A DNA stretch of 37,433 nucleotides from a virus. Its lineage: Duplodnaviria; Heunggongvirae; Uroviricota; Caudoviricetes. The notes beneath the pieces were generated by a model. The model did no database searches and was not told where the DNA came from. It worked only from the letters and a program-made list of their open reading frames with translations. How positions within the stretch are numbered: the stretch's first letter is position 1; each line of letters starts with the position of its first letter. The stretch is from the IMG/VR virus record IMGVR_UViG_2718217716_000005; one strand, 5' to 3'. Positions 1-28,603 of this stretch are shown here, piece after piece. The translations under genes were made by a program, and so were the position numbers.

Positions 1-738
1 TCATTCACTCTCTTTCAAACCAGTTTTAACTGTTTGTGGTTTTGGGTAAGGCTGGACTTTGAATAGCTTTGTGTTAAGGCGTTTTCTGGCTCTCTTGTCC
101 AGAAACCGGATGTAACGAAACTGACGGAATTTATGAACACTGGCTCTGTCGATATTAGCCCGCAGATGTTCACCTCTCTGTCCGCCTCGTTTAATGGCAT
201 TCCTGCAAATCTCGTGATACCACTCGCCATCAAGTTCATAGAATGTTGTTTCATGGCTGCCTACATAATCAAAATTGCTTGCCTGGTACACGACACCAAG
301 ACAGCCACAACGCTCATCTGCAAACGACTGAACCCACTGTACCTGCGGATAAAGCTGTCTGATTAGTTTGAGTGCGTAACTGATGGCCCTTGATTCGGAG
401 TTTCTCGGCATACAGTCATGCAGCCATAACCGGTTAAGCTCCATATATTCGCGGTTCTGCGTGCCCGTTACGACGCGTGCACCACTGTTTGGATTAAGGG
501 CATAGCCCCATTGCATTACGCCAACCAGCTCCCGTTCTGAAAATATACCCAGATGCAGGTAGGAATTATTTACGAAACGGTGGCTGTAATGTTTATTGAC
601 GATGACCAGTCTGGCCAGCCAGCAACTTATTGTCTCAACCCGTAATTCACGGGAACCATAACCGACGATATTGTCGTTATAGTGAATAAGTTCAGGCGTG
701 CTGATGATACGGGATGTGACTTGCTTTCTGTTCCCCAC
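1..738 (-). CDS. mom: Mom-like DNA modification protein; start uncertain (GTG at 736-738 proposed, preceded by AAGGAAA; the full ORF reaches 933)
   Basis: Last gene at the Mu right-end position, overlapping the 3' end of a Com-like zinc-finger ORF in another frame, as in Mu com-mom. Stop TGA at 1-3. No in-frame ATG near the com stop. Confidence 0.7.
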
Positions 739-892
739 GACAGGATTTCCTTGTGTATGTGGGGTGCTCTGTGGCGCTCTGAGATGTGATTTGATTGAGG
801 GTTTTACAGCGCGGACATTTGACTTCCAGATAACTGAAGCTGGCTCGTGCCAGTAGCTTGTTGCAATGTCGGCACCGTATGTTTCGATACAT
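692..892 (-). CDS. com: Com-like zinc-finger translational activator of mom
   Basis: Small ORF with CxxC...CxxC ([14 protein letters not shown]...KCPRCK), immediately upstream of and overlapping mom. Start taken at the internal Met at 890-892 rather than 937. Confidence 0.7.
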
Positions 893-1578: not shown

Positions 1579-1613
1579 AAACCGGCAGAGGACACCACCG
1601 GTTTGTATTTTTA
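1579..1613 (+). terminator. Stem-loop (aaaccgg ... ccggttt) followed by a T-run on the plus strand
   Basis: 7-bp stem at 1579-1585 / 1598-1604, then gtattttta. Lies downstream of the 1150-1443 gene and overlaps the stop of the minus-strand ORF 1611-1865. Confidence 0.4.
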
Positions 1614-1865
1614 CATCATGGTACTGTCAGCTCCGGGCTGAGCTGGTTCTGGTTGCTCTGGCTGCGCGTCGGTTTTCGGCTCATTATCAGCATCACTGGC
1701 CGCAGCAGCTGGTCCAATAAGTTTTGCCAGCACCTCGTCAACGTAAGTGTCGATTTGTGCCTCAAAATCTTTGCGGACCTGCGCTTTCAGCAACTTATTT
1801 ACTTCACCGGAATACAGTGCCTGTTTTACCAGGTCTTCAGTGACGGTGCCTTTAATTTCTGGCAT
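1611..1865 (-). CDS. Hypothetical acidic protein (84 aa)
   Basis: Strong ribosome-binding site AAGGAGG with 6-nt spacer before ATG at 1865. Helical N-terminus, acidic Pro/Glu/Gln-rich C-terminus. Confidence 0.55.
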   Translation of the reverse strand: MPEIKGTVTEDLVKQALYSGEVNKLLKAQVRKDFEAQIDTYVDEVLAKLIGPAAAASDADNEPKTDAQPEQPEPAQPGADSTMM

Positions 1866-1900
1866 GTATATCCTCCTTATGCGGGAATACAGCCCTGCAA

Positions 1901-2083
1901 TCAGGGCTGGGTCGGGCCTTTTGGGAGCGGAGCGGCCTGTGCTGTTTTACTGAGCTTTTCGGCTGCTGCGTCATCAATTTTGCGGCGAACATAATTTCTG
2001 ATGGCTTTATATCCACTGCTCACCAGATATAACGCACATACCGCCGTGCAGAAATAAAGCAGCATCGTATGAACAAATGTCAT
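1901..2083 (-). CDS. Hypothetical small membrane protein (60 aa, one predicted transmembrane helix)
   Basis: AAGGTAAGG-type ribosome-binding site. Hydrophobic stretch MLLYFCTAVCALYLV followed by a basic region. Confidence 0.45.
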   Translation of the reverse strand: MTFVHTMLLYFCTAVCALYLVSSGYKAIRNYVRRKIDDAAAEKLSKTAQAAPLPKGPTQP

Positions 2084-2197
2084 ATAACCTTACCTTTGAT
2101 ATTGACTACAGAAACAGTTTTCAGCTAAAAAGTAACCGCGTACATAATGGCCTTCTTTTCAGAGGTTGTAGCTTTCCTTAATGGGTTTGGAATATCA

Positions 2198-2241
2198 CCC
2201 GCCAGTCAACAAATGGCTCTTTGACCGGCGGGATTTTTTTA
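2198..2241 (+). terminator. Stem-loop cccgccagtcaa ... ttgaccggcggg followed by T7 on the plus strand
   Basis: Seen directly. The T-run is on the plus side only, so it is an efficient terminator only for plus-strand (antisense) transcription; on the minus strand it is a stem-loop without a U-tract just 3' of the esterase gene. Confidence 0.45.
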
Positions 2242-2247
2242 TCCTGC

Positions 2248-4317
2248 TTACGCGTTATTCACTTCCACCACAATGCTGTCAATCAGCACCGGGTATGTTG
2301 CACCGTTAGTGATATCGGTCACGCGTAACTTGTCTGCCGTAAACGTGCCAACCGGAGACTGCGACAGCATGAATGGTGTCCCGTCCTTACCATCAATGAC
2401 CGGCGTCACCTCAATACTGTTGTTACCGGCAAAACGGAAGCCCAGCGTATGCCACTCATTATCAAATGCGCTGAATGCCCCCAGCTTCGTGTTCTGCGCC
2501 GTGTTTCCCTTGTGATACATCACGTTAAGGTCTGTGGCATCGCTCTGTACGTAGAACGACGCCAGCAGGTTATGACCGGCATTACCTTCCAGAGTAACCC
2601 CTTGTGGCAGGGCAGAAACCGGCCAGTACAGCGCCAGTGCGTACTGATTAGCCGTAAGCGCGCCATCGAGTTTAAAACGACAACTGACAAGACCACCTTT
2701 ACCCAGCAGGTCCGCACCATTACCGGCATCATGCTCAAGATACCAGGAGGATTTGCCTGTTTCCTTGGTCAGTTTCATGGCCTTACCACTACCAGCTCCG
2801 GCATCATCCACGATTTGAGCCTTACCGCCTCCGGCAGTCCAGCCCTGTGGTGCCAGCTGTCCTTCAGACTCTGATGCCCGGTAAGCAAACAGGGTGCTCA
2901 TCGTCGTGGTGTCAGCCGGTGGTGTGGACGGTGTATCCGGCGATGGTGTTGATGGCGTGTCAGGTGATGGTTTTTCATCCGGCTGTGTCACAACCGGTCC
3001 CTGCATCACTTCAGGTGTGCGTCCCGCATGGAGCAGAATGGCTGAGGCCAGACGGTCTGAAATAATGCCCCTGCGTGCCCATGAGCTGAAATGGCTGTCA
3101 CGCTGTGTCGAGACAAAACTGCCCTGGGTACGGGATGCCGCACCGTAATACCCGACAGTCACAATATCCGGGTCTTCCGCCTGAGCATTCGTTGGCGTGT
3201 TCTGTCCATTCTCATCCGTCAGGAAAGGTACAAAGAAAATATTCTGAGTTTCCTTGCCTTTGTAGCCACCGTATACCGCCTCATATTTATCGGTGCCAGC
3301 GTTTTTCCAGTAATACGTGGTATCACCACAAATCCACGGTACCGTGCCAGCATTTCCACTCACGCACTGCGCAGCAAGCGGAGACAGGTCAGTTCTGAAC
3401 TGCTGAACCATGGTCGTGAATAAACCATTATGCTGCTGACTTCCCGATGCAAGGTCTGCTTCTCCCTGCATCCAGACCACAGCCAGAAGTTTGTTTTTCG
3501 GGTTCTTCGCCAGCGCCGCTCTGGTACGGCTTACCAGGTCCTGATACAGAGGTTTACCGACTCCCCAGCGTGAAGAATCAGCGGAAGCACCGCTGGTCTC
3601 ACTGAATGAACCGTCCGCCCCGGTGGTAAATGCTGACCCACCACGGCAACAGGGCACCAGAAGAATCCCGGCATTCTGCGGGATATAAGGCAGCAGTTTT
3701 TTGGCAATATGCAGCCCCTGACCGACAGTCCCGTACTGGCCTTTTGCCAGATCAGCTTTCGGGTGGTTTATCCCGCTCATATCCTGCACATCATGCAGGC
3801 AGTGATCTGCCGGAATGATGTCGTTATATGTACACGACGTACCGTCGGGCGTGACCGTGCTGCGGCGTGCCAGTTGCTTAATCCGTGGGTCCGGGCGGTC
3901 AAATGAATCCGGTAACGGAAGCCCTTCACCATAGGCCATGCCATTTGATTGTCCCGCCAGTGGGATCACATAGTAATACTCCGGCTCTGTGGTACTGCCA
4001 TTCGTGCTGCCGGAAGGCCCGGCGTTATCCGGTGCATTCCAGTCGGAGGGCGTGAGTGTTCCGGCCACGTCAGCTGTAATCGGAATGATGCCGGTCACGC
4101 CTGAACTGGTGATTTCTGCACTGGGATTACCGGATACCGGCATTATCCATAATGGCTCTTTCGTGCTGAAGCGGATCACGCAGTCTGCGAAGGTGATCCC
4201 CCCTTTATTACCCGAAGGCCTGAAAGGACTTTCAATAAATGCCACCGTGCCACCGGCAACCTTGACTGAAAACTCTCCGGGCATGGCGGAGAGCATTTTC
4301 CACTGGGAGTCTGACAT
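2248..4317 (-). CDS. Multidomain protein: N-terminal region, SGNH/SASA-type O-acetylesterase-like domain, Pro/Thr linker, C-terminal lectin-like beta domain (689 aa)
   Basis: Motifs YVIPLAGQSNGMAYGEG (GQSN nucleophile motif), VVWMQGEAD, DSHF (Asp/His of triad); linker PSPDTPSTPSPDTPSTPP; C-terminal ~220 aa Gly/Asn/Thr-rich. Sits where Mu carries the G segment and gin. Confidence 0.7.
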   Translation of the reverse strand: MSDSQWKMLSAMPGEFSVKVAGGTVAFIESPFRPSGNKGGITFADCVIRFSTKEPLWIMPVSGNPSAEITSSGVTGIIPITADVAGTLTPSDWNAPDNAGPSGSTNGSTTEPEYYYVIPLAGQSNGMAYGEGLPLPDSFDRPDPRIKQLARRSTVTPDGTSCTYNDIIPADHCLHDVQDMSGINHPKADLAKGQYGTVGQGLHIAKKLLPYIPQNAGILLVPCCRGGSAFTTGADGSFSETSGASADSSRWGVGKPLYQDLVSRTRAALAKNPKNKLLAVVWMQGEADLASGSQQHNGLFTTMVQQFRTDLSPLAAQCVSGNAGTVPWICGDTTYYWKNAGTDKYEAVYGGYKGKETQNIFFVPFLTDENGQNTPTNAQAEDPDIVTVGYYGAASRTQGSFVSTQRDSHFSSWARRGIISDRLASAILLHAGRTPEVMQGPVVTQPDEKPSPDTPSTPSPDTPSTPPADTTTMSTLFAYRASESEGQLAPQGWTAGGGKAQIVDDAGAGSGKAMKLTKETGKSSWYLEHDAGNGADLLGKGGLVSCRFKLDGALTANQYALALYWPVSALPQGVTLEGNAGHNLLASFYVQSDATDLNVMYHKGNTAQNTKLGAFSAFDNEWHTLGFRFAGNNSIEVTPVIDGKDGTPFMLSQSPVGTFTADKLRVTDITNGATYPVLIDSIVVEVNNA

Positions 4318-4621
4318 CGTCTTTTCTGCCTGTTTCTGAATTAAACAGAGTCAGAATAACAACCGCTGATAAATATGTGTTTTGCGGAAATTCAAAAAAA
4401 GCGTCACAGTACTTTTCGTGACGGAGCCGGTGAGGCAGGAACATAACGACAAAGAATGGACAGGCCAATACGATAACCGCATATTACCGGCTTATAATTG
4501 ATTTAACGATTCATGACGCTGCGTTCAGCACCTGAAAATATGCGTTATTTCAGAAACCCCTTGCCTGTATATGGCAATAGTATTGTTCCTGTTTTTATCA
4601 TTGATTTACATGGTGATGTTT

Positions 4622-5143
4622 ATGCAACTGATTAATGTTAAACGATATTACCCGGAACACAAACCCTATGGTAATGATGTACAGTATTTTCAGAGTGATG
4701 ATGGTAAGGATTTCTATGAGTCCCTGCCATTATTCACCAAAAAATATAAACTTTGTATAACACCTGACAGCGGCGTTATCTGCTCAATATCACAGGACGC
4801 CTCGGCGCTGTATCCTGCGGGATTTTCCGTGGTTGAGACAGACGAACTCCCTGAAGGCACTGATATTTCAGGAAACTGGAAGTTTGATAATGGCATCATC
4901 TCACGGCTTCCGGTCAATTACGACAAAAAAGCGGAAGAACTGCGCCAGTCATATCTTAATCAGGCATATGAACAAATTAATGACTGGAGAACAGAACTAC
5001 AACTGGGCACCATCAGTGATGAAGACAGAGCAGCACTGGCACGATGGATGGCATACATCAGTCAGGTGAAAAAAATGGTATTACCCGCCATTAAAACTGA
5101 AGCTGAATTTAACGCCATTAAATGGCCTGAGCAGCCACAGTAA
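4622..5143 (+). CDS. Tail fibre assembly chaperone (Tfa family)
   Basis: C-terminus ...DEDRAALARWMAYISQVKKMVLPAIKTEAEFNAIKWPEQPQ and central DASALYPAGFSVVE / GNWKFDNG are typical of Tfa proteins. Start chosen at Met 4622; the ORF could begin at 4571 or 4610. Confidence 0.7.
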   Translation: MQLINVKRYYPEHKPYGNDVQYFQSDDGKDFYESLPLFTKKYKLCITPDSGVICSISQDASALYPAGFSVVETDELPEGTDISGNWKFDNGIISRLPVNYDKKAEELRQSYLNQAYEQINDWRTELQLGTISDEDRAALARWMAYISQVKKMVLPAIKTEAEFNAIKWPEQPQ

Positions 5144-5174: not shown

Positions 5175-6056
5175 TTATATACTTGCAGCCGTCACCCATG
5201 ATCCATTTAACAGATACTGCAACGGCCGGTAATACACGCCGCCGACGTTATCTGCCGTATTCTTACCGACATCCTGTACTTTAATTCCGGTAAGAACATT
5301 GCCGCCCCCCAGATTCAGATCCCAGCTTTCCCATGTTCCGGGCATATGTGCGGTCACCGACCCCAGTCTTATGGCGGTTACTGTTCCTGATGAGATAGTG
5401 ATATCCTGCGTCCCGTCAAAGGGAACACCATTAATTGTGTGGGCATTTGCCAGCCTGTTCGCGGCAACGGCCGTTCCGTTCGATGGCAGGGCATTCGCCG
5501 CCCTGTTTACCGTTTCCCGTAAACCGACGTTATCGATAAAAGCCCCTTTATTCGGAATGTCTGCGCCGTGCTGCTCCCTGCGCAGGTAACGGTTATCACC
5601 TTCGCTCTTGCTGTAAACATCCAGATTATTACGGGCGGTTACCTTATTCTCCAGGTCGGCGAGATTCTGATCCTTCGCCAGGGCATTAACGTCACCGGGA
5701 CCAAGACTGTTTTTTGTGGCAAGCGTCCCCAGACCAAGATAACCACGGGCAAGACGCTGGGCCTCCGCACCGGCATCAGCAATTTCTTTCAGGTTATTTT
5801 TCCGGGAAAAAGCATTCGCAGCGATAATGGCTTTAATGGACAGCGTAAGCTGGTTTAACTGCGCCTTATCCGGCTGAATATTGGCTTCAGCCAGAATATT
5901 CAGCAGTTCGGCCTGGAGAATATTCAGCCAGTCCTGACCAATCCAGCTGATACCTTTTTGTCCGTCACCTTCGGTAAACCAGGTGGTGGTATTACTCTGC
6001 GCCGGTGCCAGCGCAGGCATATTCGCCACGCCGGAATTATTATCAACATGAAACAT
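5175..6056 (-). CDS. Tail fibre protein (short, ~293 aa; Mu S position)
   Basis: Follows the baseplate genes with ATG overlapping the upstream stop. Gly/Asn/Thr-rich C-terminus and coiled segments typical of fibre distal domains. The ORF track extends to 6110 but the overlapping Met at 6054-6056 is preferred. Confidence 0.7.
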
Positions 6057-8733: not shown

Positions 8734-9850
8734 AGCTGATCCCCTGTTTTTTCATCTTCTGGCGAATAAAGGCATCAACATCATCACCGGAACCACCGCC
8801 ACGGCCTTTGCTGTCCGGCTCTGCCGGAACGATAAAGCCGTCACGCGGTGCCAGAACCAGCCGGGTGACTTCCCCGTTCTGTTCATCCAGTAAAAACTCC
8901 ACCTGACAGACCAGCAGTTCAGTCTGTTCGATACCGAAACGCAGGGCTGAAACACCGGTCAGCAGATTGACATCCCATAACCGGCCATCATCCCGGAACC
9001 AGCCACGCACGGTGGCAGAAAACCGTTCTGAACGGGCAATCGCACGGCGCATTTCACGCAGGGCACGCTGCCGTGCACCGGTGGCGTCTGTCTGTTGATC
9101 GGCGAGGATGATTTTCGGCCGGTAGCGGCCGATCTGCTCATCACTGATGACGCCCACAGGTGCTGCCAGCCGGGCGGCGGATTCGCTGTCTCCCCGTTTG
9201 CCACCACCGCGCCCGTGCCCCCGGACACGGTATTCGCTGTATCGTCCTCGCCAGTCCGTGTTGTAATCGGCATCAAGCAGGTTATCTCCCAGTACCAGTC
9301 TGTCCGTCTGCTGGCTTCCTGCCTGGGTGAACACCAGATCGCCGTCAGCATTACTGGTCACCAGCACCCCGCGATGCCGGGCAGCACGGGTCAGCGCATC
9401 CGCCACGGTTTCTGAGTTTTCCAGCGTAAAAGAGCTGAAAGGGCGTGCAGCCGTGTCGTCGTTAACCTGCCAGCGCACAGCTATCCCGAAGGGCGCACAT
9501 AAATCTGCGGCAATCTGTGCCAGCGTCCGGTTGCGCCACTGGCTGCCGGGATGGATGGCGGCACAGTCCACCAGGTCGCCGGTTTTATCCCGACCGCTGA
9601 TGCTGATCTGATGACGGGTTGCACTGATCCGCTGACTGACCTGATCCAGCCAGCCACTGATGACCGTCTGCCCGTTAATTCTGAGCGTCAGGGACTGACC
9701 GGTCCGCAGGGCTGAGGGGATGCGCTCACCGGGCAGCATCAGCCCCAGTTCAAACGACCCGGCCAGATGCTCCAGCGAGCGACGGACGCTGACCGTCAGC
9801 CAGCCGGAAAAAATACTGCCACCGATATACAGTTCAATCCTGCTGCTCAC
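8723..9850 (-). CDS. Baseplate hub / late-control-D-like tail protein (Mu P position)
   Basis: 375-aa ORF between the N-like gene and the spike, overlapping both. Confidence 0.65.
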   Translation of the reverse strand: MSSRIELYIGGSIFSGWLTVSVRRSLEHLAGSFELGLMLPGERIPSALRTGQSLTLRINGQTVISGWLDQVSQRISATRHQISISGRDKTGDLVDCAAIHPGSQWRNRTLAQIAADLCAPFGIAVRWQVNDDTAARPFSSFTLENSETVADALTRAARHRGVLVTSNADGDLVFTQAGSQQTDRLVLGDNLLDADYNTDWRGRYSEYRVRGHGRGGGKRGDSESAARLAAPVGVISDEQIGRYRPKIILADQQTDATGARQRALREMRRAIARSERFSATVRGWFRDDGRLWDVNLLTGVSALRFGIEQTELLVCQVEFLLDEQNGEVTRLVLAPRDGFIVPAEPDSKGRGGGSGDDVDAFIRQKMKKQGISFDE

Positions 9851-11192
9851 TGATCACCTCCACGCTGCGGCCCCCCGGAACAAAAACCGGATCGGAGATA
9901 TTGTTTCTGCGGACAAAATACTGCCAGCGACTGCTGTTGCCGGTGGCACGGTACAGCGTGACCAGTGCCGGTTCGGTGGTGCGAACCATGACCTGAAAAG
10001 CACCGGGAAGATGCACGCTCCGTGTGGTTAAATCTTCTGTCAGCGCAAGCCCTGCATCACGTAATGCAAGGGCAGTCCCGGTATAGCCCTGTGCGGACAG
10101 ATCCAGCACCTGTTGTTCCATGGCATCGCTCAAATCCCGGTTGATACGCTGCACATCAGCAGAACTTTCCAGCCATGCCAGTCCGCCCGAACGGTCAGTA
10201 TCCTGAACGTGCGTCGTATTCTGCCGGATGACCTGATCCAGCAGTTTTCCGACCGTCTGTGCCTGCGACACCAGGGTTGCACTCTGCATCACGCTCCGCA
10301 GCAGACGGATATTTTTCTGTGCCGCAGGCGTCAGGCCAATCAGGCGCTGTGGATCATCCTGTTCGCTGAGGGTGTAACGCAGGGAGGAAAGTGTGCGGTA
10401 CAGCTGCGGCATGGACTGCTCTGCCATGCTGTCACGGTTTGTGGTCAGGCTGCCGGACGGCGTTCCGGCTTTTCCGGTCAGAGACAGGGAAGGATCGCCG
10501 GGCAGCCCGGTCAGCACGGCAAACATTCCGGCCAGCGATTCAGCCATGCGACGGGGCGCATTAATCAGGGCGGCGGCATTGCCTTTCAGGGCAGTAAAAC
10601 TGGCCGTAAAGGCACTGATATCCTGCACAATCCCCATCCCCGAAACGGCATTCTCCAGTGCATCAATCTTATCGCTGATGGTGTCGGTCATGGCCTGTAC
10701 ATCATGCAGACCGTCTGAAATCACCGTCCAGCCGTCTGAAAGCGTGTTAAACAGCTGATTCATTGCTGAGCCGCTTTTCTGCTCCAGCGCAGCTGCCGTA
10801 TCTTCTGCCACCGAAGGGGCGGTATCGTCACTGGCGGGGATCACGTTGATCGTGAACTCAACCGTTCCCTGCTCGCTGGCGTTATAACGGCTTTCAAAGC
10901 TGTTTATCAGCACGTTTAACGTGCCGTAATCCGGGTGCATTAGTTCACCGGCACCGGGTGCACGCAGCGCATCACGCAGGCGGCTTCGCTGTGTCTGAAG
11001 ATCGTCTCCGGTCACCAGAACCGTGAATGTGAACTCCGGGAGTTTTGGCCCCAGATCATCCGCACCGCCGCTTTCACGCAGTGGGTATTCACGGCGCACA
11101 ATGTTACGTCCGCCCCGTTCCCGCTGCTCCTGATAAACCAGGAACGGTACGCCACGAAAGGAGCCACGCCCCGGCGTGTCAGTAGAGGCCAT
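9834..11192 (-). CDS. DNA circularisation protein N-like tail protein
   Basis: 452-aa ORF immediately after the tape measure gene, as Mu N. Confidence 0.65.
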   Translation of the reverse strand: MASTDTPGRGSFRGVPFLVYQEQRERGGRNIVRREYPLRESGGADDLGPKLPEFTFTVLVTGDDLQTQRSRLRDALRAPGAGELMHPDYGTLNVLINSFESRYNASEQGTVEFTINVIPASDDTAPSVAEDTAAALEQKSGSAMNQLFNTLSDGWTVISDGLHDVQAMTDTISDKIDALENAVSGMGIVQDISAFTASFTALKGNAAALINAPRRMAESLAGMFAVLTGLPGDPSLSLTGKAGTPSGSLTTNRDSMAEQSMPQLYRTLSSLRYTLSEQDDPQRLIGLTPAAQKNIRLLRSVMQSATLVSQAQTVGKLLDQVIRQNTTHVQDTDRSGGLAWLESSADVQRINRDLSDAMEQQVLDLSAQGYTGTALALRDAGLALTEDLTTRSVHLPGAFQVMVRTTEPALVTLYRATGNSSRWQYFVRRNNISDPVFVPGGRSVEVISEQQD

Positions 11193-19946: not shown

Positions 19947-20123
19947 TCCGGCAGCATAAGCCGGTGTTTTTCAGGGCAGGTTTTGCGGGACTTCAGAAAG
20001 TGCTGACAGGGGAAAAATGAGAAAGGCGCTTCACGCAGATTTTAAAGCCCGTTAAATACAGGTTAGAAAATCACGACACGCGCCTGAAGAGGGTAAGGTA
20101 ATGTATTTGTATACCTTAAACCA
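19947..20123. promoter_or_regulatory. G-I intergenic region: candidate late promoter and candidate central strong gyrase site
   Basis: 177-bp non-coding gap at the genome centre between G-like and I-like genes, where Mu has P_I and its strong gyrase site. Contains hairpins (ccggc-agcataa-gccgg + T5; taaggta...tacctta). No motif-level confirmation. Confidence 0.35.
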
Positions 20124-20597: not shown

Positions 20598-20718
20598 ATT
20601 GCCTCCGCATAAAGGATGAATATAAAATAAACAGGCGGTCAGTGTACGCTTAACTGGTAAAGTCGGTGCCTGCCTCCGGGTGGATCATGTATGCGGGTTC
20701 GACCCCCGCCACTGACCG

Positions 20719-28110: not shown

Positions 28111-28148
28111 GTTACGCTGTCTCATGGTGTTCTCTGAGTCAGCGTAAC
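28111..28148. promoter_or_regulatory. Perfect 9-bp inverted repeat (gttacgctg ... cagcgtaac, 20-nt spacer) immediately upstream of the endolysin start codon
   Basis: Seen directly; the 3' arm ends 1 nt before the lys ATG on the minus strand. Confidence 0.5.
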
Positions 28149-28180
28149 CGTGGGAAAAAGTGGGCAGGATTTGCGGAATA

Positions 28181-28603
28181 TCAGAAAAGCCGGGGCTGCG
28201 TGCGTTCCTGATGCAGGCGGCGCTGGGTGCGGATAACGGAGTAAATCTGCGTCTCTGACATCTGGTAGTGGCGGCGCAGGGTTTCAATTTTTTCGCCCTG
28301 GCTCCAGCGGGAAAAAATTTCATTATTGCGCAGTTCGGTGAAAAGGGATTCACCGACCGGGAGATAATAACCACGCCCGCCCATGTACCCGGCCTGTGCG
28401 GCCGCAACTTTACGGGCAAGCATTCCCGCCTGAGCAGATTCAATCCCCTGACGGTGCAGTTCAGCACTGATCACATCAACCAGGTCCCGCAGCGTGCCGG
28501 GCCAGTTCTTTTTCAGCTCATCATCAGGAATGTCATCCAGACGGTCAATCAGCGCGTGCAGCTGTTCGCTGTCACCAAACATGCTCATCTGTGTTTCAGC
28601 CAT
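28181..28603 (-). CDS. Mor/C-family transcriptional activator (140 aa), the only member in the window
   Basis: Size and position directly upstream of lys. C-terminal helix-turn-helix-like IETLRRHYQMSETQIYSVIRTQRR, GGAGG ribosome-binding site. Confidence 0.7.
   Translation of the reverse strand: MAETQMSMFGDSEQLHALIDRLDDIPDDELKKNWPGTLRDLVDVISAELHRQGIESAQAGMLARKVAAAQAGYMGGRGYYLPVGESLFTELRNNEIFSRWSQGEKIETLRRHYQMSETQIYSVIRTQRRLHQERTQPRLF

Follow-up and report, generated by a model that had tools for sequence, protein, structure and literature searches.

A probable NanS-p-type sialate O-acetylesterase with an exchanged N-terminal domain in a Mu-like prophage

The window, which means the whole analysed stretch of 37,433 nucleotides, carries in the right end of a Mu-like prophage an ATG-initiated minus-strand open reading frame for a 689-aa protein, and the RefSeq label of this gene is "DUF6645 domain-containing protein". 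Such a label says less than the evidence on the gene allows, and the locus raises the question of which enzyme is encoded here and in what setting (on the phage particle, in the lysate, or at the surface of the lysogen) it would act. The original prediction was based on the motifs GQSN (aa 122–125), WMQGEAD (aa 282–288), and DSH (aa 407–409), all of which are present, and placed the gene between the tail-fibre module and com-mom, the position being confirmed by the ORFs, Pfam, and RefSeq annotation. The coordinates of the features are collected in Table 1.

Table 1. Features of the nanS-p variant gene and its surroundings in the window (position 1 is the first letter of the window).
Feature	Position	Strand	Basis
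mom	1-738	-	Pfam Mom; RefSeq
com	692-892	-	Pfam Zn_ribbon_Com; RefSeq
DUF826 small gene, 84 aa, third in cassette	1611..1865	-	Pfam DUF826 2.1e-15
DUF1378 small gene, 60 aa, second in cassette	1901..2083	-	Pfam DUF1378 1.3e-32
nanS-p variant gene, 689 aa	2248..4317	-	ORF; phrog_143; Pfam; 3PT5 and 6YP6
C-terminal lectin-like jelly-roll domain (DUF6645), aa 474-689	2251..2898	-	6YP6 2e-98; DUF6645 3.8e-67
Linker 2, aa 434-473, holds duplicated PSPDTPST (nt 2917-2970)	2899..3018	-	Sequence
SGNH type II / SASA esterase domain, aa 110-433	3019..3990	-	3PT5 match, aligned GQSN and His
Linker 1, aa 83-109, Gly/Ser/Pro/Asn-rich, predicted disordered	3991..4071	-	pLDDT below 50
N-terminal domain, aa 1-82, predicted small all-beta cupin-like barrel, not DUF1737	4072..4317	-	Pfam, AF2, dN/dS
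Late-promoter-like element upstream of nanS-p: TTGAATTTCCGCAAA, N22, TATTCT, no -35 hexamer	4330..4396	-	Motif search
Gin recombinase C-terminal stub, 21 codons plus stop	4404..4469	-	IGLSILCRYVPASPAPSRKVL and stop, matches Gin of L002
G-like segment remnant: S'v 3' stub and orphan inverted U'	4471..5143	+	BLAST to L005 7328-8000
Tail fibre gene, locked in one orientation	5175..6056	-	phrog_1833 E 5.9e-139; RefSeq; inverted-repeat analysis

The gene product is arranged in the order of N-domain, linker, SGNH/SASA esterase, Pro/Thr linker, and lectin-like C-terminal domain. The profile search against the SGNH/SASA families matched SASA (1.2e-12), the same Pfam scan gave DUF6645 (3.8e-67), and phrog_143 was matched with E 2.7e-295, while among sequences of solved structures 3PT5 (E 3e-118) and 6YP6 (E 2e-98) were found; these profile and structure-sequence matches far exceed chance. 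The SASA and 6YP6 matches bear out the predicted two-part protein of esterase and lectin, the latter match also agreeing with the beta-rich lectin-like domain proposed for the C-terminus. The NanS-p of the Stx2a phage is 67% identical over aa 110–688, with nothing aligned before aa 110, and taken by domains the identity with Stx-phage NanS-p is 72% in the esterase and 69% in the lectin-like C-terminal domain. Judged from these comparisons, the protein belongs to the NanS-p type of prophage sialate O-acetylesterases, and the explanation of the locus that is built on this is probable (roughly 0.75). The NanS-p family is already known and well studied, and the esterase-plus-lectin design is not new.

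The esterase core is 58.7% identical over 317 aligned residues to E. coli NanS (YjhS, 9-O-acetyl-N-acetylneuraminate esterase; PDB 3PT5), the likeness including the SGNH type II class and the kept Gln-Ser and His residues. In the window protein these are Gln123-Ser124 of block I (GQSN) and His409, and the residues G122, Q123, S124, N125, and H409 have aligned counterparts in NanS and do not vary among five homologues. The catalysis of NanS is performed by Ser19 and His301 with Gln18 in the oxyanion hole and involves no catalytic Asp (PMC9063846). Block IV reads RDSH here and RSSH or RASH in homologues, so that Asp407 of the DSH motif (the Asp at position −2 of His) is Ser or Ala there (alignment; also PMC10462455), and the block V DxxH of a canonical SGNH hydrolase was not found, the motif here being R-D-S-H. 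Of the predicted SGNH fold with a Ser-His-Asp triad, therefore, the fold stands through the similarity of the core to the solved NanS structure, while the triad has to be abandoned, since the Asp of DSH is unconserved and NanS itself has no catalytic Asp. The tested substrates of NanS-p are 9-O-acetylated sialic acid and mucin O-glycans, and enzymes of this family were active by experiment on Neu5,9Ac2 and mucin glycans (PMC8065619). For the window protein the same substrates are assumed from enzymes 59–72% identical to it; the dyad Ser124/His409 with the oxyanion residue Gln123 would then remove O-acetyl groups from sialic acids, for example, from Neu5,9Ac2 on mucin glycans.

Chromosomal NanS is a single-domain enzyme of host sialic-acid utilisation and differs from the window protein in having no N-domain, neither of the linkers, and no lectin-like C-terminal domain. 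In NanS-p this last domain (6YP6) is described as a lectin-like jelly-roll (PMC10462455, PMC8065619), for which the aromatic residues Y510/Y515/Y540/F611 were proposed as the sugar site in vb_24B_21 (PMC10462455). Their counterparts in the window protein, mapped via the alignment with Stx2a-phage NanS-p, are the conserved Y559, Y564, Y589, and F659, and a C-terminal jelly-roll of this kind would direct the esterase to carbohydrate. The PSPDTPSTP linker read earlier from the sequence proved to hold PSPDTPST in duplicate (aa 450–467), and the whole linker 2 varies in length and sequence among relatives, with dN/dS of 0.17–0.56 where computable. In linker 1 the stretch of aa 96–109 is fast-evolving, with dN/dS of about 1 against the relative L005 and 29% aa identity against the relative L004.

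The combination of esterase and lectin was initially compared with viral haemagglutinin-esterases, and the comparison holds for function only. Influenza C HEF and the HE proteins of coronaviruses and toroviruses are also viral SGNH sialate O-acetylesterases with a lectin module (PMC9063846); however, in HE the lectin domain is inserted in a type I SGNH fold (PMC9063846), while here a type II esterase has the lectin appended C-terminally, and no HE family was matched in the Pfam scan of the window proteins.

The main difference from the known NanS-p proteins lies at the N-terminus. Stx-phage NanS-p begins with the capsid-binding domain DUF1737, whereas the window protein begins with an unrelated domain of about 80 aa: in alignment aa 1–82 are unlike the N-terminus of Stx-phage NanS-p, DUF1737 gave no match in the 689-aa protein at E up to 1 against 5.8e-16 for the Stx2a-phage homologue, and aa 1–109 had no Pfam, NCBIfam, or convincing PHROG match. 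With a 5-sequence MSA, AlphaFold2 modelled aa 1–80 as a block with pLDDT of 65–89, and the predicted fold is an all-beta barrel, whereas DUF1737 is described as a helix plus three strands. A run on the full protein without an alignment (pLDDT 32) was set aside and nothing was drawn from it. The fold matches of the predicted barrel were generic and weak, including the cupin dimerisation domains of Mif2p and CENP-C and PA14 carbohydrate-binding domains, and among them there was no likeness to tail-spike or baseplate-attachment domains.

According to its substitution rates this N-domain is under purifying selection, with dN/dS of 0.02 against L005 and with pN of 0.23 and pS of 0.75 against L004, in which it is 63% identical at the amino acid level and the synonymous sites are saturated. 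It was found solely in E. coli, Shigella, and Salmonella, each time within a Mu-like prophage; 32 of the 5426 complete E. coli genomes contain the N-domain variant, and commensal mouse E. coli is among the carriers of the gene. The word-indexed homology search with aa 1–109 returned near-identical fragments only, while exhaustive phmmer with the same query added one further true distant relative, the Salmonella homologue P0006, with an N-domain 31% identical and with the same architecture and prophage context. Two other phmmer matches, P0007 (FG-GAP repeats) and P0008 (low-complexity sequence), were rejected as spurious, the profile search with the N-domain yielded nothing more distant than the phmmer relatives, and no paralogue of the domain was found elsewhere in the prophage. 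A weak match of P0006 to phrog_4772 (2.5e-5), which the 689-aa protein does not share, is a hint rather than an assignment. In these comparisons aa 1–82 stand in place of the DUF1737 capsid anchor, a replacement that appears to be new.

The gene heads a three-gene cassette of nanS-p, DUF1378, and DUF826, and the same three genes follow each other in the same order in the Stx2a phage, where the counterparts of the two small proteins are 50.8% (DUF1378) and 41% (DUF826) identical. NCBIfam gave no match for any cassette protein; by eye, the DUF1378 protein looks single-pass membrane. The cassette region is bounded on one side by com and mom, which are right-end genes of Mu-like prophages, and on the opposite side by the tail fibre gene. 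The two small cassette genes with the spacer up to com (938–2247) have a G+C content of 42% against 55% in the rest of the prophage, which suggests that this part is acquired DNA. Recent transfer from Stx phages was ruled out, since megablast gave only Mu-like insertions in two Stx prophage records and the Stx-phage esterase core at about 76% identity; among isolated phage genomes the same search found no free-living phage with the nanS-p variant. The "tRNA-OTHER" annotated by RefSeq in the prophage had no ARAGORN support.

In the relatives the order of fibre, invertible segment, gin, com, and mom is that of the Mu right end, and a cluster of GATC upstream of com recalls the Mu gin-com junction. 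In Mu itself gin is followed directly by com, whereas here the cassette, about 3.4 kb long, intervenes, and in related prophages it lies between these two genes; in Stx phages, by contrast, nanS-p is located between stx/Q and the holin gene S. The arrangement of fibre, G-like segment, gin, and nanS-p variant was observed in four E. coli prophages and one Salmonella prophage, and the E. coli prophages with the variant occupy different chromosomal sites. The two small ORFs that separate gin from the Salmonella homologue were considered as candidates for DUF1378 and DUF826, but their sequences ruled this out.

The original prediction also assigned the gene to the G-segment/gin position, which does not agree with the related prophages, where it lies downstream of an intact gin. 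Replacement of gin by the cassette was ruled out, since relatives carry both and the window retains a gin stub. The intact Gin gene and the flanking inverted-repeat pair of the Mu G-segment inversion system were not found in the window, the 172-nt inverted repeat of L005 is absent from it, and compared with the Mu system gin and one inverted-repeat arm are deleted here. A single 870-bp deletion with the junction at 4470 removed the rest of gin and accounts for both the gin stub and the truncated, frozen G-like segment; this deletion took gin later, when the cassette was already present, and froze the tail-fibre inversion switch. The remnant of the segment consists of the S'v 3' stub (about 4471–4541) and the orphan inverted tail-fibre-assembly gene U' (4622–5143; Caudo_TAP / phrog_136; RefSeq start), and a terminator-like hairpin (4402–4423) overlaps the stop codon of the gin stub. 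The region 4318–4621, previously regarded as a divergent control region of the gene, is composed of an 85-bp intergenic region, the gin stub, the S'v stub, and the U' leader (the real start of U' is at about 4622). Since gin was lost by the 870-bp deletion, it is mostly a deletion scar, and its promoter-like part is limited to about 4330–4396 and would serve nanS-p alone.

The sigma-70 consensus scan upstream of nanS-p found no promoter on its strand. The composite motif of the late-promoter-like element is confined to the regions upstream of nanS-p, of the head protease gene, and of lys, with 0.00 occurrences expected, an estimate that is inflated since the pattern was derived post hoc from the sequences scored; it was sought without success before the tail operon and com, and at the head site no more than about 6 nt separate the predicted −10 from the annotated start codon. 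Upstream of nanS-p the element is conserved in relatives and lines up in register with Plys of Mu, whose late promoters were taken from the annotation of AF083977, and it lies where Mu has Pmom, directly downstream of gin. Thus, a putative element common to nanS-p and to the lysis and head operons of the prophage and alignable with Mu Plys appears to be present, and it is apparently new. The lambdoid nanS-p belongs to a late operon downstream of the antiterminator Q, while here a putative Mu-type C-dependent promoter is proposed; the Stx-phage gene is a late one and is upregulated on induction (PMC8065619, PMC10462455). The prophage encodes a Mor/C-family activator at 28181–28603. Late C-dependent expression of the variant is somewhat favoured, and the enzyme would be made only after induction, alongside virions and lysis proteins, and would exit the cell at lysis.

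The family identity, the catalytic and sugar-binding residues, the cassette synteny, the deletion of gin, and the selection on the N-domain are demonstrated by homology. The window protein and Stx-phage NanS-p are alike in the catalytic and sugar-binding residues, in the downstream DUF1378/DUF826 genes, in being prophage-borne, and probably in late expression, while the phages are different, a lambdoid phage in one case and a Mu-like transposable myovirus-type prophage in the other. In phi24B the homologous protein gp84 binds the capsid hexons via DUF1737 and is located on the capsid, not on the tail (bioRxiv 10.64898/2026.04.10.717836), and by analogy with gp84 a virion-borne role of the window protein is plausible, although the DUF1737 anchor is absent here. 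The swapped N-domain would fit the enzyme to this type of phage, with attachment to the Mu-like particle as the likeliest way, and such anchoring is proposed tentatively, at well under even odds. A broader proposal, held with similar reserve, sees NanS-p as a modular enzyme that modifies mucin and is displayed on virions, its N-module being an anchor that can be exchanged to suit the type of particle, where DUF1737 would dock on the T=9 capsid of lambdoid podophages and the beta-barrel of ~80 aa would dock the same cargo on a Mu-like myovirus particle.

Another explanation, which is quite possible while somewhat short of an even chance, is that the enzyme is soluble and is freed at lysis with no virion association, so that mucin sialic acids are de-O-acetylated and surviving lysogenic kin feed on them; in that case the N-domain would serve for oligomerisation or as an extra carbohydrate-binding module, and not as a particle anchor. 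The established function of the family, which allows growth on Neu5,9Ac2 and removes O-acetyl groups from mucin (PMC8065619), is in line with this, the resemblance of the predicted barrel to the Mif2p and CENP-C cupin dimerisation and PA14 domains points the same way, and the late-promoter-like element suits release at lysis equally well. However, a soluble enzyme gives no account of why the N-module was exchanged between phage types while the catalytic and lectin domains stayed homologous, and the corresponding position in phi24B is a capsid anchor.

The gene adjoins the tail-fibre module and its upstream element is of the late type, which would also suit the first of the two roles initially suggested, a virion-borne receptor-modifying enzyme that aids adsorption by freeing O-antigen or an O-acetylated polysialic acid capsule of O-acetyl groups. 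This was raised for NanS-p as an open possibility, and de-O-acetylation of bacterial surface polysaccharide by NanS-p is a published speculation (PMC8065619); it is unlikely here, since every substrate tested for this family is a sialic acid or a mucin glycan (PMC8065619), the dedicated Neu5,9Ac2 esterase NanS shares 59% identity with the esterase core, and the N-domain is unlike tail-spike or baseplate-attachment domains, with the phi24B protein being on the capsid and not on the tail. Less probable still is a lysogenic-conversion enzyme of the resident prophage that alters the lysogen surface and excludes superinfecting phages, as was initially suggested: despite the accessory right end beside com-mom, a typical moron position, and the low G+C content of 938–2247, no signal peptide or membrane anchor was seen by eye in aa 1–30, the upstream element is late in type with no sigma-70-type promoter on the strand of the gene, and induction raises the expression of the Stx-phage homologues, which are late genes (PMC8065619, PMC10462455). 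Finally, the view that the N-terminal 109 residues are meaningless sequence left by the joining of an esterase gene to Mu DNA, with only esterase and lectin being of importance, might draw on the very few homologues and the missing Pfam, NCBIfam, and convincing PHROG matches, but it is already largely refuted by the strong purifying selection against both L005 and L004, by the domain order kept in the distant Salmonella homologue, and by the compact and confident prediction of aa 1–80 beside a disordered and fast-evolving linker, and it can hardly be maintained.

So far NanS-p has been regarded as a metabolic "moron" by which Shiga-toxin phages enable pathogenic E. coli to feed on O-acetylated mucin sialic acids, and in a 2026 cryo-EM preprint it was recast as a DUF1737-anchored capsid decoration protein (bioRxiv 10.64898/2026.04.10.717836); in the literature search no paper linking nanS-p to Mu-like phages was found. 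The present locus indicates that the catalytic and lectin cargo of NanS-p is retained in an unrelated, Mu-like transposable phage type with a different conserved N-module. If the modular proposal is true, this module would represent a previously unrecognised virion-attachment domain family, and unrelated temperate phages would have independently retained the NanS-p enzyme on their virions. If the N-module anchors the enzyme to the particle, gut temperate phages would have been selected repeatedly for carrying a mucin-modifying enzyme on their virions; otherwise, the variant would serve as a natural domain-swap control with which the public-good and virion roles of NanS-p can be told apart.

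The protein encoded by the gene under study belongs, by all the sequence matches obtained, to the NanS-p family. The features listed in the original prediction are all present, namely GQSN (aa 122-125), WMQGEAD (282-288), DSH (407-409) and the duplicated PSPDTPST linker (aa 450-467), and the profile search it called for returned Pfam SASA (1.2e-12) and DUF6645 (3.8e-67); phrog_143, a PHROGs family of unknown function, was matched at 2.7e-295. Among solved structures aa 108-428 match 3PT5, the E. coli 9-O-acetyl-N-acetylneuraminate esterase NanS/YjhS (E 3e-118), and aa 474-688 match 6YP6, a chain deposited as "NanS-p" (E 2e-98). Identity is 58.7% to NanS over 317 aligned positions and 67% to the Stx2a-phage NanS-p (yjhS) across aa 110-688. 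It is these matches, together with the downstream genes shared with the Stx2a phage, that place the gene in the family. The chromosomes of two E. coli strains from mouse, M1 and M3, contain the window at 100% identity; there the RefSeq name of the gene is "DUF6645 domain-containing protein" and nothing more.

NanS-p proteins have esterase activity on Neu5,9Ac2, remove O-acetyl groups from mucin glycans as well, and let lysogens grow on both substrates; their genes are late and upregulated upon prophage induction (PMC8065619, PMC10462455). Thus the combination of esterase and lectin-like domain was correctly observed and is already explained by a known family, the viral haemagglutinin-esterases with which it had been compared being functional analogues only. 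Of the defining NanS-p features testable here only two are absent, the DUF1737 N-terminus and the location in a lambdoid late region, and the parts deserving follow-up are the N-terminal swap and a Mu-type late-promoter-like element.

Coordinates of the nanS-p variant and associated features in the window
Feature	Position	Strand	Remarks
nanS-p variant ORF	2248-4317	minus	ATG start; 689 aa
DUF1378 small gene	1901-2083		downstream of nanS-p variant; 50.8% identity to Stx2a-phage copy
DUF826 small gene	1611-1865		downstream of nanS-p variant; 41% identity to Stx2a-phage copy
Gin C-terminal stub	4404-4469		translation IGLSILCRYVPASPAPSRKVL*
Terminator-like hairpin	4402-4423		over gin stop codon
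Late-promoter-like element copy	28140-28176	minus	directly upstream of lysozyme gene, right after Mor/C-family activator gene
Late-promoter-like element copy	19952-19988	minus	upstream of head protease gene

According to PMC9063846, where it cites Rangarajan 2011, NanS catalysis depends on Ser19 and His301 without a catalytic Asp, Gln18 forming the oxyanion hole. In alignment these residues correspond to Q123, S124 and H409, which are invariant in five sequences. Where this protein has the Asp of "DSH", NanS and the other NanS-p proteins have Ser or Ala (alignments; PMC10462455), so that, NanS itself lacking a catalytic Asp, the Ser-His-Asp triad sought in the original prediction is neither expected nor required; in contrast to canonical-triad SGNH enzymes, neither protein is of that type. 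In the C-terminal domain all four aromatics of the sugar site proposed for phi24B (Y510, Y515, Y540, and F611; PMC10462455) are conserved, as Y559, Y564, Y589, and F659.

DUF1737 occupies aa 3-50 of the Stx-phage NanS-p (5.8e-16) and was not matched in the window protein or in that of HH35, a gin-bearing E. coli relative, even with E up to 1; the window and Stx-phage proteins are alignable from window residue 110 onward only. Codons 1-95 show dN/dS 0.02 (dS 0.40) against the relative STEC299, and 63% protein identity with saturated synonymous sites (pS 0.75, pN 0.23) against the relative 2012EL-2448, a constraint comparable to or stricter than that on the esterase domain and unlike both linkers, which evolve fast. 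When 1.84 billion representatives were searched exhaustively with HMMER, a single genuine distant relative of the N-domain emerged: P0006, a fragment of a Salmonella protein with 31% identity, which comes from a Mu-like prophage and has the same order of N-domain, Pro/Thr linker, and then "PEYYFVIPVAGQSN...". The possibility that the segment is debris is largely ruled out by purifying selection and by this relative. The N-domain coding DNA occurs in 32 of 5426 complete E. coli genomes, all contexts examined being Mu-like, no paralogue was found elsewhere in the prophage, and the N-domain is the lineage-specific part of the protein. The AlphaFold2 model of aa 1-80, built from a five-sequence alignment, is usable (block pLDDT 65-89, pTM 0.62) and predicts an all-beta domain followed by a disordered linker, different from the helix and three strands described for DUF1737. 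In the STEC299 variant (L005 4179-6311) the N-domain and esterase domain are 98% and 89% identical to those of the window and the lectin-like domain only 33%; the carbohydrate-binding module is thus exchanged independently of the remaining protein.

By its gene content the window is an almost entire Mu-like prophage, with transposase A/B homologues, Gam, a Mor/C-family activator, lysis genes, Mu-type head, tail and baseplate genes, tail fibre, com, and mom. A RefSeq "tRNA-OTHER" lies at 20638-20717 (+ strand) between the virion morphogenesis (G-like) and minor head (F-like) genes; an ARAGORN scan of the whole window gave neither a tRNA nor a tmRNA. The prophage is inserted in the lateral-flagellar flgL, which in E. 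coli M3 is split beside lafA (L001 2589-2882 and L007 32327-32980, the flanks of the window). Related prophages lie within hofC, within a gene for a diguanylate cyclase, and adjoining torY, a scatter consistent with near-random integration of the transposition type.

The esterase gene had been said to occupy the gin position. In HH35, STEC299, and 2012EL-2448 the order is mom, com, (hypothetical), DUF826, DUF1378, nanS-p, gin, the inverted S'v and U', and tail fibre, and in a Salmonella Mu-like prophage (L006) the homologous gene is also placed downstream of gin. There the two genes are separated by two small ORFs (9426-9910), one of 58 aa whose C-terminal tail is hydrophobic and one of 87 aa, neither related to DUF1378/DUF826; the contig stops inside the esterase gene, leaving the downstream cassette outside view. 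Local BLAST against STEC299 showed a single clean 870-bp deletion at 4470 (counterpart L005 6458-7327), which removed most of gin, a small ORF, most of S'v, and one arm of the 172-nt inverted repeat bracketing the STEC299 invertible segment (L005 7034-7205 and 8259-8430); this repeat was not found in the window. Given the order in relatives, the deletion and the surviving stub, the cassette does not stand where gin would be; the loss of gin was a secondary event, and the fibre switch is fixed in one orientation. The gin-less junction is present in 8 of 5426 complete E. coli genomes. The supposed divergent control region (4318-4621) resolves into 85 bp of intergenic sequence, the stubs of gin and S'v, and the leader belonging to an inverted, orphaned assembly gene whose start is at about 4622, not 4571. 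This antisense tail-fibre-assembly gene (4622-5143, + strand) was left behind, and the expressed fibre gene (5175-6056) has no same-orientation assembly gene, even in gin-bearing relatives.

In the Stx2a phage nanS-p is likewise followed by DUF1378 and DUF826, directly before the holin gene (L003 2182-2674). The two genes accompany nanS-p in both phage types, lambdoid and Mu-like, although they have diverged to 41-51% identity and their neighbours differ, which suggests that they are functionally linked to the esterase; DUF1378 resembles a single-pass membrane protein. In the AT-rich spacer 938-1610, between com and DUF826, an 86-aa ORF on the + (opposite) strand (1183-1443; RefSeq "hypothetical") has no match in Pfam, PHROG, or NCBIfam; it is kept in HH35, and two other relatives have different, frameshifted ORFs in its place.

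No sigma-70 consensus promoter was found upstream of nanS-p on its strand. The gene is preceded by the element [T/C]TGA-N4-CCGCAAA-N22/23-TAYNCTG, which is kept in all E. coli relatives, the most divergent included. This composite pattern, derived post hoc from the same sequences it scores, occurs three times in the window against 0.00 expected, always on the coding strand just upstream of the nanS-p, lys, and head protease genes; no copy was found before the tail operon or com. The Mu GenBank record has four C-dependent late promoters, Plys after C, PI between G and I, PP within N, and Pmom between gin and com (PMID 2522923). Mu Plys, an experimentally defined promoter, aligns with the window lys upstream region, CCGCAAA being in register with the conserved upstream box of the Mu late promoters, and the nanS-p element has the same position as Pmom, directly downstream of gin. 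By this resemblance nanS-p is probably a late, activator-dependent transcription unit, which would agree with the late expression known in Stx phages. The com upstream region (893-1000, minus; hairpin 936-960) retains a palindromic cluster of GATC sites, AATCGATCG...CGATCGATT, similar to the Mu gin-com junction just upstream of Pmom, and the equivalent of the Mu upstream promoter box appears missing or replaced before com.

The literature searched contained no paper joining nanS-p and Mu-like phages and none naming DUF6645. As the cassette shares only ~76% DNA identity with the Stx-phage copies, over the esterase core only, it is by this measure an old separate lineage and not a recent capture. 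The Stx-converting prophage records LC727881.1 (about 37.6-40.3 kb) and LC727895.1 annotate a "region of the inserted Bacteriophage Mu-like phage" with a related copy of the nanS-p variant. In this copy the N-domain has 32% identity to its Salmonella counterpart and the DNA 76% to window 1582-2871, which indicates that a Mu-like element of this lineage has transposed into Stx prophages.

In the proposed mechanism induction would lead the late activator to switch on nanS-p along with the lysis and head genes, and the enzyme, in which no signal peptide was seen by eye, would therefore leave the cell at lysis; the lectin-like domain would then bind glycans and the Ser-His esterase strip 9-O-acetyl groups off mucin sialic acids. 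For the N-domain there is a serious chance, somewhat short of even, that the enzyme is soluble and that this part serves oligomerisation or additional sugar binding. Action on bacterial O-acetylated polysaccharides is improbable, and conversion of the lysogen's own surface more so, both ranking below a soluble or particle-tethered enzyme. By analogy with DUF1737 in phi24B, the most plausible role of the N-domain would be to attach the enzyme to the Mu-like particle via the flexible linker, with a probability of about 0.3-0.35. In phi24B NanS-p (gp84) decorates the capsid, its DUF1737 binding central hexons as a hexamer (bioRxiv 10.64898/2026.04.10.717836, 2026 preprint), and the replacement of DUF1737 in the Mu-like lineage matters because this same domain attaches gp84 to the capsid.
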